A stretch of DNA of 39,583 bases, taken from IMG/VR virus record IMGVR_UViG_3300005535_000012, positions 1 through 39,583 of that record; one strand, 5' to 3'. A program made the position numbers and the translations under genes. Positions 28,916 through 38,373 of the stretch are shown here, piece after piece (within the stretch, counting starts at the first letter, position 1; each line of letters starts with the position of its first letter). The stretch comes from a virus. The notes under the pieces are model-generated. The model searched no databases. It saw only the letters and a list, made by a program, of their open reading frames with translations, and was not told where the DNA came from.

Positions 28916-29458
28916 TCACTGCTCCTTTTTGAGTCGCCGAACCTCGGCGCGGTAGTAAGTTTTCATCTGCTCGATCTGCGTGAGCGTGAGCTTCAGGGGC
29001 TCATGCTTGCCTTCGAGCCATTCGACCTTTTCGAGCCCGATTTTCTCGATCAGATTGATGCGGTATGCGGTCAGGTTTCCTGACAGGTACAGGTTGCAAG
29101 GTGCGCACTGGAGATGGACGTTCAGCGGCTCGAACCGCAGTTCCGGCGCCGATCCAACCGACCGGTAGTGCCCTGCATGCCACCGTCCCTTGTGCATCCG
29201 GCCGCAGGAAATGCAGGGATGGCCGGCGTCACGCAGCCTCACCCAGGCGTTGAACGCGTCTTGCAGATCGGCCAGATGCTCGCCGCGGCTCTTTGCCTTC
29301 TGCCGCGCCTCACGGACATCACGCGCGGCCTTCTTCGCAGCCAGCCGGCGCGTCCACTCGAGCGCACAAGGCACTGAACACGCTTTCGACATGCTCGAAA
29401 TTGGCGTGAAATCGCGGGCGCAGACCTTGCAGCGCTTGGGCTTAAGCGTGCGGATCAC
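28916..29458 (-). CDS. ninG: NinG/Rap-family recombination endonuclease, 180 aa (start moved to GTG 29458)
   Basis: KRCKVCARDF...CSVPCALEW, then PCISCGRMHKGRWHAGHYRSVGSAPELRFEPLNVHLQCAPCNLYLSGN. GGAGGTGG SD. The N-terminal extension in the track is a different small gene in another frame. Confidence 0.75.
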   Translation of the reverse strand: MIRTLKPKRCKVCARDFTPISSMSKACSVPCALEWTRRLAAKKAARDVREARQKAKSRGEHLADLQDAFNAWVRLRDAGHPCISCGRMHKGRWHAGHYRSVGSAPELRFEPLNVHLQCAPCNLYLSGNLTAYRINLIEKIGLEKVEWLEGKHEPLKLTLTQIEQMKTYYRAEVRRLKKEQ

Positions 29459-35721: not shown

Positions 35722-36286
35722 TGTGTGTGGTGGCTGGCATGGTCTTCCTGCCCTCCATTTGAGCTATGTCGGCCATGCAGCACTTACCGACCGGTTGCTT
35801 GAATGCGATGAGAACTGGACTTGGGAGCCGCTGGCACTTGGCCCCGATGGATTGCCATTGCTGGATCGTGACGGCGGCATGTGGATTCGCCTGACGGTCT
35901 GCGGAGTGACTCGTCTGGGGTATGGCGATGCGCAAGGAAAGACTGGGCCCGACGCCACGAAAGAACGGATCGGCGATGCACTGCGCAACGCAGCTATGCG
36001 CTTCGGTGCCGCGCTTGATCTGTGGCACAAGGGTGATCTTCACGGTCCTGAAGAAGGCGACGGCGAGGAAAATACTAAGGCAGAAACACCTCACCAAGGA
36101 TTGGCAGCTTCTTCCTTGAAAACCCATGTCGAGGCCATCAAGAAAGCTCCCGATATGAATTCCCTCAAGTCTCTTCACGCAAGCGCATACAAAGCGGCGC
36201 ATGCGGTTCGCGACACGGTCGCAGAAGAGATCATAAATGAAGCGAAAGACGCCCGAAAACTTGAACTGGAAGAGGTTACATCATGA
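35612..36286 (+). CDS. Rad52-superfamily single-strand annealing protein-like, 224 aa
   Basis: LQRLREPFPEHQISLLPK...LSYVGHAALTDRLLECDENWTWEP...KERIGDALRNAAMRFGAALDLW fits the Rad52/Sak-type annealase pattern. GGAGA SD before ATG 35612. Confidence 0.55.
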   Translation: MSEKKTGLQRLREPFPEHQISLLPKPYKRDSPKGNCDVCGGWHGLPALHLSYVGHAALTDRLLECDENWTWEPLALGPDGLPLLDRDGGMWIRLTVCGVTRLGYGDAQGKTGPDATKERIGDALRNAAMRFGAALDLWHKGDLHGPEEGDGEENTKAETPHQGLAASSLKTHVEAIKKAPDMNSLKSLHASAYKAAHAVRDTVAEEIINEAKDARKLELEEVTS

Positions 36287-36786
36287 ACGCTATCACTCTC
36301 TACGCTCTGGCTGGCGAATACAAGGACGCCGCCGACAAGCTGGCAGAAATGGAGTTGGACGATCAGACAATTTCCGATACGTTGGAATCGCTTTCCGGCG
36401 ATCTCGAAGCCAAAGCAACGAACACGATCATGCTGGTTCGCAACCTCGAAGCGACTGCCGAGCAGATCAAAGCGGCCGAGAAAGCCATGGCCGAACGCCG
36501 CAAGGCATACGAGGCGCGAGCCACCCGAATCAAGCAGTACGTCATGGACAGCATGATCTTCGCCGGCATTACCAAGATCGAATGCCCGCTGTTCAAGATC
36601 GCGATACGCGACAACCCGCCGTCAGTCGTGATCGATGACGAGAAGCAGATTCCGCAATCTTATCTGACCGATCCGCTTCCGCCGCCTCCTGCTCCCGACA
36701 AGAAGCTGATCGCGCAGGCTATCAAGGACGGCTGTGAAGTGCCGGGAGCGCACTTGGAGCGTGGCCAGCGCTTGGAGGTTAAGTGA
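36283..36786 (+). CDS. Siphovirus Gp157-family protein, 167 aa
   Basis: Coiled-coil N-terminal half, then ...ITKIECPLFKIAIRDNPPSVVIDDEKQIPQSYL, as in Gp157-like proteins that accompany phage annealases. Confidence 0.55.
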   Translation: MNAITLYALAGEYKDAADKLAEMELDDQTISDTLESLSGDLEAKATNTIMLVRNLEATAEQIKAAEKAMAERRKAYEARATRIKQYVMDSMIFAGITKIECPLFKIAIRDNPPSVVIDDEKQIPQSYLTDPLPPPPAPDKKLIAQAIKDGCEVPGAHLERGQRLEVK

Positions 36787-37127
36787 GCGACGAAGCAGAA
36801 ATCAACATCTTCAAGGCGCTCGATTTCATTCGGGACAATGCATCGGAATACGCCAAAGCCAAGGCGACGCGCGTTTATCTCGAAGAGTTCCGAAAGAGCA
36901 AGAAGGCTTTGCTGATGAAAGATGCCGAGCGTGCTGGTCACAACGCAGTCAGCGCTCAGGAGCGCGAGGCATATGCAGACGAGGGTTATCAGGATCATCT
37001 GAAATCCCTGCAAGCCGCCGTCGAATCAGAGGAAAAGCTGCGCTGGCTGATGGTCGCCGCGCAGGCAAAGATTGCCGTCTTCCAAACGTTAGAAGCAACT
37101 CGGCGACTTGAGGCAAAGGTCTTATGA
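36783..37127 (+). CDS. Hypothetical helical protein, 114 aa; its last 13 codons are supplied by the HNH-like insertion
   Basis: GTG start after GGAGG. The C-terminus TLEATRRLEAKVL is duplicated in diverged form at 37559-37597. Confidence 0.6.
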   Translation: MSDEAEINIFKALDFIRDNASEYAKAKATRVYLEEFRKSKKALLMKDAERAGHNAVSAQEREAYADEGYQDHLKSLQAAVESEEKLRWLMVAAQAKIAVFQTLEATRRLEAKVL

Positions 37128-37558
37128 AAACTCATGGGATGCGGAAAACGCAGGAATACAAGGCTTGGTCTGAGGCAAAGCAGCGATGCCATAACCCGAA
37201 AAACGCCAAATACAAGTGGTATGGCGCCAGGGGAATTTCGGTATGTGACGAATGGAAAAATGATTTCGAGGCATTTTTCTCTCATATAGGACCAAAGCCA
37301 AGCGAAAAGCACGAGCTTGACCGTATCGATAACGACAAGGGATATGAGCCCGGTAACGTCCACTGGGTGACAAAGCAAGACAACGTGAGGAATCGCAGAA
37401 ATACAGTTAAGGTTGTTGTTGGCGGGAAAGAAATGACCCTTGACGATTACGCTAAGGCTGCTGGAATTCCATATGCGACAGCGTGGGCGAGGCTAAAGAA
37501 GCACCCCCATCTGATTAATGGAGAGCCAAAGCGCAGTGGCGGAAGAAAGAGCAGTCGC
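37086..37558 (+). mobile_element. 473-nt insertion cassette: recoded 13-codon gene end plus stop plus HNH-like ORF
   Basis: Bounded by the two homologous 39-nt segments (37086-37124 and 37559-37597). AT-richer than the flanks. Its length is not a multiple of 3. Confidence 0.5.
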
Positions 37559-37600
37559 ACCTTGGAGTCCACCAGGCGCGTCGAGGCAAAGACGATTTGA
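37124..37600 (+). CDS. HNH_3-like (degenerate) endonuclease/DNA-binding protein, 158 aa
   Basis: EYKAWSEAKQRCHNPKNAKYKWYGARGISVCDEW...LDRIDNDKGYEPGNVHWVTKQDNVRNRR matches a widespread phage HNH-type family. Its C-terminal 13 aa derive from the displaced end of the upstream gene. Confidence 0.55.
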   Translation: MKTHGMRKTQEYKAWSEAKQRCHNPKNAKYKWYGARGISVCDEWKNDFEAFFSHIGPKPSEKHELDRIDNDKGYEPGNVHWVTKQDNVRNRRNTVKVVVGGKEMTLDDYAKAAGIPYATAWARLKKHPHLINGEPKRSGGRKSSRTLESTRRVEAKTI

Positions 37601-37622
37601 CTTCATGGCAGCCCCCTTGGAA

Positions 37623-37649
37623 GGGCCGCAGTACCGGGCCCGACTTTTT
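37623..37649 (+). terminator. Candidate rho-independent terminator/attenuator
   Basis: gggcc-gcagtaccg-ggccc stem-loop followed by gacttttt. Confidence 0.35.
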
Positions 37650-37677
37650 GAGGCTGTACTACTGATTGAGGATGACG

Positions 37678-38309
37678 ATGAGCGTACCGACAGCCGTTTT
37701 CCTGTTCGACAAGACGGGCAACATGGCGAAGCCTTGGGCCGAAGCCGGCTACCGATGCATCTGCTACGACATCCAGCATGTCGGGCGCACCGTGCGCGAT
37801 GGGATCGTATTCCAGCAATGGGACGCACTGATCGGGCCGCCTGCGCTGCCGCCGGATTCTCTGGTTGTGTTCGGTTTCGCCTTTCCGCCTTGCACGCACC
37901 TAGCCGTCAGTGGCGCCCGCTGGTTCCAGGGTAAGGGTCTGCGCGCGCTGTCGCAGTCGATCGAGATGTTCGCCGCGGCGGCCGAATTCCTCGAGTCGCT
38001 CGGCGCGCCATACGGTATCGAGAACCCGGTGAGCGTGATTTCGTCGCACTGGCGCAAGCCAGACCACACGTTCCACCCGCACGACTATACCGCCTTCGAG
38101 CTGGCCGATCACTACACGAAGAAGACGTGCCTGTGGGTCGGCGGCGGATTCGAAATGCCCGCTCCGAATCGCGCGGAAGGTCTTGGCGCACCCGACAACC
38201 GGATCCACGCTGCCCCCCTTCCGACGACCGCGGCGACATCCGCTCGGCTACGCCGATGGGGTTCGCACGCGCCGTGTTCGAAGCAAACGCGAAGCAACTG
38301 ACCACCTGA
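37678..38309 (+). pseudogene. C5-cytosine-methyltransferase-like gene lacking a target-recognition domain; reading frame broken at a C6 run
   Basis: Motif I-like FLFDKTGNMAKPWAEAGY, motif IV-like FPPCTHLAVSG, motif VI-like IENPV. After cccccc (38213-38218) the plausible C-terminus PPSDDRGDIRSATPMGFARAVFEANAKQLTT continues in the -1 frame to 38309. Confidence 0.55.
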
Positions 38310-38373
38310 GGACCACACATGACCACCACCGACAATAGCCGCGCTGATGCGCTGACGGACCTGGAGGCGAACC

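Follow-up and report, generated by a model that had tools for sequence, protein, structure and literature searches.

The window (the whole stretch of DNA analysed, 39,583 bp) is a complete viral record with terminal repeats. It contains a gene for a conserved phage protein of 114 amino acids, here called g114, with the C-terminal end ...TLEATRRLEAKVL-TGA, and an HNH-like open reading frame (ORF) of 158 amino acids that starts in an ATGA overlap with the stop of g114 and has the C-terminal end ...TLESTRRVEAKTI-TGA (longer form, ...SSRTLESTRRVEAKTI-TGA). The original prediction had drawn attention to the likeness of these two ends, and its coordinates all agreed with the ORF list and with the letters of the sequence. 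The two 42-nt segments that it compared (37086-37127 and 37559-37600) are indeed identical at 27/42 nucleotides and 9/13 amino acids, with mismatches mostly at third codon positions (9/15 third, 5/15 first, 1/15 second), and over both strands of the window 27/42 is the top ungapped score for the 42-mer, all others being below 24. The peptide likeness of the two ends is by itself thin support, because an unrelated 8/13 peptide match is also present (at 29365, minus strand); comparative data decide.

Empty sites and the limits of the cassette

The closest g114 proteins (P0001-P0004, 87-92% identical) have one gene end, ...EVWRTLESTRRVEAKTI, which is that of the downstream copy. Relatives without the HNH-like ORF (L007/P0001, L002/P0004, P0002 and P0003) carry this single downstream-type end, as had been foreseen, and the upstream type was not found in the nearest of them. 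In the gene maps of L002 and L007, which have no HNH gene, a methylase-like gene comes directly after g114. The final 14 residues of the HNH-like ORF (the relic tail in Table 1) agree with the C-termini of P0001, P0002 and P0004 at 14/14 positions, and the corresponding DNA is identical to that of L002 at 40/45 nucleotides and to that of L007 at 38/45. This identity upholds the proposal that the resident gene end had become fused in frame to the endonuclease ORF: alignment with these relatives shows resident codons 101-114 and their stop displaced 473 nt downstream, where the endonuclease ORF takes them in, in frame, as its final 14 residues.

Blastn aligned positions 36185-37074 of the window with L007 1843-2732 (86%) and positions 37556-38372 with L007 2741-3551 (87%); the only L007 sequence between these blocks is 2733-2740, and window positions 37075-37555 are unmatched. 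A MAFFT alignment agrees with the blastn junctions. By comparison with the closest HNH-less relatives, 481 nt have come in and 8 nt have gone out, a net gain of 473 nt (Table 1). The 473-nt cassette originally proposed thus stands as a net figure, and its insertion point, placed 13 codons before the stop, gives way to junctions 17 codons (left) and 14 codons (right) before the stop. Likewise, duplication of the gene end holds, with the downstream homology beginning one codon earlier than the 13 codons described, at Arg101 (37556), and the replaced upstream segment, also described as 13 codons, is in fact 17 codons long, from 37075.

Table 1. Features of the g114 locus
Feature	Position	Strand	Basis or remark
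Hybrid g114, 114 aa, conserved phage protein	36783..37127	+	ORF, homologues, AF2
Resident (backbone) part of g114, codons 1-97 and first base of codon 98	36783..37074	+	End of blastn block
Inserted cassette, 481 nt, in place of 8 nt (AAGTATGG)	37075..37555	+	Blastn, MAFFT
Cassette-borne substitute gene end, codons 98-114 (AVFQTLEATRRLEAKVL) and stop	37075..37127	+	Alignments
HNH-like ORF, 158 aa	37124..37600	+	Residues 1-144 from cassette, residues 145-158 from resident g114 tail in frame
Relic tail, resident codons 101-114 (RTLESTRRVEAKTI) and original stop	37556..37600	+	Protein and nucleotide identity, blastn
Resident intergenic region 3' of g114	37601..37665	+	Continuous with HNH-less relatives (MAFFT alignment)

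Residues 1-97 of g114 are 99% identical to P0001 (1 difference), and the last 17 residues have 7 differences. The imported, divergent C-terminal segment continues g114 in frame to a stop and the ORF stays at 114 aa; g114 is still full length because the cassette's own allele now supplies its end. The left junction falls within codon 98, where resident GAA and donor-type TCC would yield the observed GCC (Ala), and such a hybrid codon may be the reason for Ala here versus Ser in related cassettes. For the HNH-like ORF the substitute end holds an SD-like AAGG as well as the ATGA in which stop and start overlap, and it belongs to the '[WF]QT' type of gene end, which in other loci goes with an HNH gene.

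The description of the cassette as AT-richer holds weakly: its GC content is 48.9%, where the genome has 54.5%, the left flank 55.8% and the right flank 60.5%, a modest contrast. Of all 481-nt windows, 12% are as AT-rich or more so, and at this 12th percentile GC content was set aside as a weak sign of foreign origin. A promoter/terminator scan made no calls on the plus strand. Just past the relic tail, at 37623-37649, there is a sequence of terminator-like appearance (GGGCC-N9-GGCCC, then GAC and TTTTT) that is kept in HNH-less L007; the scan missed it because its loop is longer than 8 nt.

The HNH-like protein and its target gene

The HNH-like protein matches PHROG 3377 ('HNH endonuclease', E=1.6e-49) over residues 1-127 only, and a fold search of BFVD matched it to phage proteins that bear the name HNH or homing endonuclease (lowest E 1e-13). 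The threshold of Pfam family HNH_3 was not reached (13.6 bits versus a cut-off of 24.8, E=0.054, residues 52-89). Neither a sequence profile search of the PDB up to E=1 nor a PDB fold search (E <1) found a match to the protein, and NCBIfam returned nothing meaningful for it. Examined for the beta-beta-alpha-metal fold of HNH nucleases, the AF2 model has strands at residues 63-67 and 79-83 and a helix at residues 84-91. In HNH nucleases the general base is a catalytic His that comes after a conserved Asp where the first strand ends. Asp66-Arg67 of the window protein, invariant in 24/24 aligned relatives, presumably corresponds to Asp-His of the HNH_3 motif, a mapping that depends in part on the Pfam alignment below threshold; the place where the catalytic His is usually found thus seems to be taken by an invariant Arg. 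A nuclease activity is therefore suggested by family labels and genetic behaviour, not by an intact textbook motif.

The window protein is without a C-terminal HTH-like module of approximately 45 aa that is found in its nearest relatives (190-270 aa). By hhalign the module aligns (probability 85%) with the C-terminal domain that a canonical HNH_3 endonuclease has in Ralstonia phage Heva; in the comparison with Heva gp63, a bona fide HNH_3 protein, only the HTH-like module aligned and the active site did not. Judging by these alignments, phage homing endonucleases appear to have this HTH-like DNA-binding module in common, and its loss may have crippled the window copy, although the short form is present in at least two backbones. 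In the full-length relatives among P0123-P0136, which were aligned with the canonical HNH_3 endonuclease at L250:2546-3091, the module spans approximately 50 aa, with the pattern ...KLTD.Q..EIR.S.E.TK.L...YGVS..LIQGIR.G....

The target gene has 2535 homologues, and nearly all of the best 120 of these 2535 are 113-116 aa long; no Pfam or PHROG family matched g114. It is located in a recombination module, after genes for a single-strand annealing protein (SSAP; PHROG 3290) and a Gp157/Gam-like protein, and in relatives it adjoins ERF or SSB genes. AF2 predicts a two-helix hairpin (pLDDT 92.5; helices 9-50 and 56-113), of which the replaced end forms the last turns of helix 2. The top PDB fold matches of g114 are all chains of the T4 recombination mediator UvsY (TM 0.64), at a level that is not significant (E=0.067). 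Since these matches coincide with SSAP/ERF, Gp157 or SSB neighbours, a mediator-like role of g114 in recombination is a lead.

Related cassettes and the fate of the displaced tail

In many phages and prophages of Burkholderiales the same g114 site is held by one of two related lineages of HNH-like genes, and each lineage has its own recoded gene end. Lineage A has no N-terminal extension, and its g114 ends in S/A-V-W/F-Q-T (E98S, R101Q); lineage B has a Cys-rich N-terminal extension, and its g114 ends in W-R-T-I-S-A-N-Q-R (E104S, R107Q). The starting points of the fused resident tail in the two lineages differ by no more than one codon (R101/T102). Lineage B is found at L236:2160-3127, L242:933-1900 and L030:2501-3474 (Burkholderia prophages and metagenomes), with the resident tail joined after ...HLIDC. 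Each lineage swaps a Glu, and an Arg three residues on, for Ser and Gln, the pairs being six codons apart (98/101, at 37074-37085 in the window, and 104/107); the changes look like a paired, charge-neutral swap on one face of a helix.

All HNH relatives of at least 59% identity for which the locus was read lie directly after a g114 homologue; the g114/HNH junction is an ATGA overlap in 8/9 loci compared, and an abutting stop and start (TGATGA) in the other (L009). Among 115 distinct loci, which are not phylogenetically independent, so that kinship inflates the contingency table, an HNH gene is adjacent to 1/91 ordinary 'WRT.E' ends and to 11/21 recoded ends of the [WF]QT or WRxISANQR kind (A-type 8/13, B-type 3/8). 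The other 10/21 recoded ends have neither HNH gene nor second tail (for example L200, L247, L243, L013, L015 and L033). Such ends may be scars of past residence, and resistant, or they may be natural variants or source alleles. No HNH protein of at least 60% identity, and no cassette, was found among the cultured phages of INPHARED; the gene end is of the ordinary kind in Ralstonia phages Heva and Eline, where the neighbouring 'HNH' genes are from other families.

The arrangement of the window recurs in L003, L004 and L006, of which the g114 protein (P0005) is 82% identical to that of the window. The cassette is closer between the window and L003 than its adjoining flanks are, and closer relatives of the flanks lack it (Table 2). 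An L003-like cassette within L007-like flanks is the pattern expected of lateral transfer, and the patchy distribution is in keeping with it. The Gp157 gene further upstream is, however, nearly as close to that of L003 as the cassette is, and is conserved across all comparisons; the region is therefore mosaic, and the cassette could have been carried here by ordinary recombination.

Table 2. Nucleotide identity of the window to a locus with the cassette (L003) and one without it (L007)
Segment	Window vs L003	Window vs L007
Gp157 gene	92%	88%
g114 body	73%	90%
Cassette	93.1% (448/481)	Absent
Tail	87%	84% (38/45)
Downstream	68%	84% (37601-37700)

The reading that best accommodates these observations, and one that is considered very probable, is that the 3' end of g114 has received a mobile cassette consisting of the recoded last 17 codons and an HNH-like homing-endonuclease gene in an ATGA overlap. 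The main competing explanation is that ordinary mosaic recombination, illegitimate or by short homology, brought in the g114 end together with the neighbouring gene, without homing, and that the protein is not a site-specific nuclease and could be a DNA-binding or regulatory protein. The HNH_3 score below its cut-off, the invariant Arg seemingly at the position of the catalytic His, the lack of a PDB match, the mosaic nature of the region (the Gp157 gene and g114 body differing as in Table 2 between the window and L003), and the existence of tail-less relatives that are ordinary ATGA-bounded modules before three different genes would all fit such an event. Against it, the gene is bound to one precise intragenic site in every close relative examined, it is polymorphic for presence and absence, a recoded target segment travels along with it in two lineages, and its relatives by fold and in PHROG bear homing-endonuclease annotations. 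Site fidelity, presence/absence, a co-travelling recoded segment and homing-endonuclease relatives are hallmarks of a homing element and not of random mosaicism, and mosaic recombination without homing is regarded as unlikely.

The original prediction had allowed that the C-terminal similarity might be a conserved feature of the HNH-like family, independent of context. A tree of HNH cores mixes tailed with tail-less proteins, and its well-supported branches force at least four tail/no-tail changes, and the core of tail-less P0127 is nearly identical to that of tailed P0124; HNH relatives of approximately 60% identity or less, which align mostly N-terminally, occur in other gene contexts and have no such tail. 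A conserved family feature is ruled out by the tree and by these relatives: because tailed proteins have tail-less ones among their close relatives, and the reverse, the tail belongs to the context and not to the family. The sequence of the tail tracks the backbone, not the HNH lineage.

Tail-less forms end in ...R[KSR]AA-stop, with a GCATGA overlap to three different downstream genes (L088, L245 and L248), and since they share this terminus and overlap, ...R[KSR]AA-stop is evidently the native end of the HNH ORF. In tailed forms the swap takes in just a few terminal codons (...LR|RTIE...) or a longer stretch (...IDC|TIE...; ...KSS|RTLE... in the window). The 3' end of the HNH gene at L245 (CGG CGC GCC) has GGCGC in the same frame as resident TGG CGC ACC, a microhomology that would give exactly the LR|RTIE junction of P0123 and P0124, both compared as proteins. 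The in-frame fusion may thus be explained by in-frame GGCGC microhomology that guided the junction.

It is considerably less likely still that the in-frame tail has a function in the endonuclease and is kept by selection, say as a helix resembling the C-terminus of g114 that docks on g114 or a partner. All tails seen are in frame across their junctions (KSS|RTLE, RPV|RTIE, LR|RTIE and IDC|TIE), and that of the window retains the family-invariant R108 and E110, but the frame is explicable by the microhomology, tail-less close relatives are interspersed with tailed ones, and the tail follows the backbone and not the HNH lineage. Moreover, tails are decaying in several lineages: that of P0133 has lost 8 residues, that of P0130 has a truncated start, and those of P0128, P0135 and P0142 have substitutions where the sequence is otherwise conserved. 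In the AF2 model of the window protein residues 134-158 have pLDDT <50, by which the tail is predicted to be disordered. As regards the protein, the tail would be a by-product. Least credible of all, and hardly to be entertained, is a local tandem duplication of the gene end around an inserted gene, with the upstream copy diverging in place and no foreign allele: it would suit direct copies 473 nt apart with 27/42 identity, but the upstream copy belongs to the [WF]QT allele class of many other phages in which it lies beside related HNH genes, it is 89% identical to the L003 copy where the adjoining g114 body is only 73% identical, and 7 changes in 17 residues versus 1 in 97 in the body would need extreme local acceleration.

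A proposed homing cycle and its known counterparts

If the cassette is a homing element, the protein or a full-length relative would cut the uninterrupted site near codons 98-102 (...ATT GAA GTN TGG CGN ACC...) in cassette-free phages, and repair from a co-infecting, cassette-bearing genome would copy the cassette in. The donor would be immune, its site being split by the insert and the flanking codons recoded (E98->A/S, W100->F, R101->Q and synonymous changes). The right-hand junction would have arisen at the break or close to it, and in some relatives the shared GGCGC may have guided the joining. Translation of the endonuclease is probably coupled to that of g114 through the ATGA overlap, which may limit endonuclease expression, as proposed for T4 mobE (PMC2988022).

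The tail may also act as a short right-hand homology arm of the element, and could be useful as such because the sequence downstream of g114 varies between phages. A bolder version of this idea, put forward tentatively and with more doubt than confidence, is that the tail is a portable right-hand homology arm with which the cassette homes into any phage that has g114, and that lineages protect themselves by Glu/Arg->Ser/Gln swaps at either 98/101 or 104/107, which would change the DNA target and leave the protein still working. If so, the element would have an intron-like, intragenic lifestyle without an intron, whatever lies downstream.

Free-standing homing endonucleases of T-even phages (SegF, SegG and MobE) are known for 'intronless homing' (PMC2988022; PMC2790892), and translational coupling and co-conversion are known for those of T4 (PMC2988022). 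The HNH-like gene resembles them in being an intronless phage gene that overlaps an upstream stop (UAAUGA for mobE) and in its presence/absence polymorphism among relatives; with the T-even endonucleases, flanking markers are co-converted. Unlike the T4 examples, which lie between genes, the element described here lies inside a coding sequence, for which a substitute gene end compensates. Gene-end duplication is not mentioned in the T4 review (PMC2988022), and a literature search for phages with duplicated gene ends turned up no published example, which is not proof that there is none.

The layout is known from fungal mitochondria, where mORFs create gene hybrids with carboxy-terminal duplication in atp6, atp9, cox2 and nad3 of Glomus sp. 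(Beaudet et al. 2013, PMC3630166); atp6 of Allomyces macrogynus is cited in that paper as another mORF gene hybrid. In both settings a gene body is followed by an imported, divergent C-terminus in frame, an endonuclease ORF and the native C-terminus in its displaced position. Of the two copies it is the native one that matches close relatives, and their divergence from each other is similar (63.5% identity for Glomus atp6, 64% here). The three features of an mORF hybrid, namely an imported C-terminus, a displaced native end and a single native end in relatives, are all found at the g114 locus, which by this analogy is the phage counterpart of the mORF gene hybrids. It differs from them in its bacteriophage host, in an HNH-like rather than a LAGLIDADG or GIY-YIG endonuclease, in a much shorter duplication (14-17 codons), and in an endonuclease that has its own ATGA-coupled start and is not fused to the upstream gene.

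On this reading, the locus would illustrate how a selfish endonuclease gene can live in a phage coding sequence without an intron or intein, by bringing a spare, recoded gene end. The relic tail would explain an odd C-terminal similarity that could mislead annotation and domain analysis, and cassettes of this kind, by importing foreign gene ends, can distort single-gene trees. The comparative set of empty sites, two lineages, tailed and tail-less forms and microhomology yields a concrete predicted target, g114 codons 97-108, for a large phage 'HNH-like' family of which the nuclease activity is putative.

A pair of genes in Ralstonia phage Heva also deserves mention (NC_054960.1, L250:2139-3094). 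Two adjacent 'HNH endonuclease' genes there end alike (...NLGLAA-stop and ...HLVLAA-stop), the second encoding a canonical HNH_3-type protein, and the pair may represent another short gene-end duplication around an endonuclease insertion.
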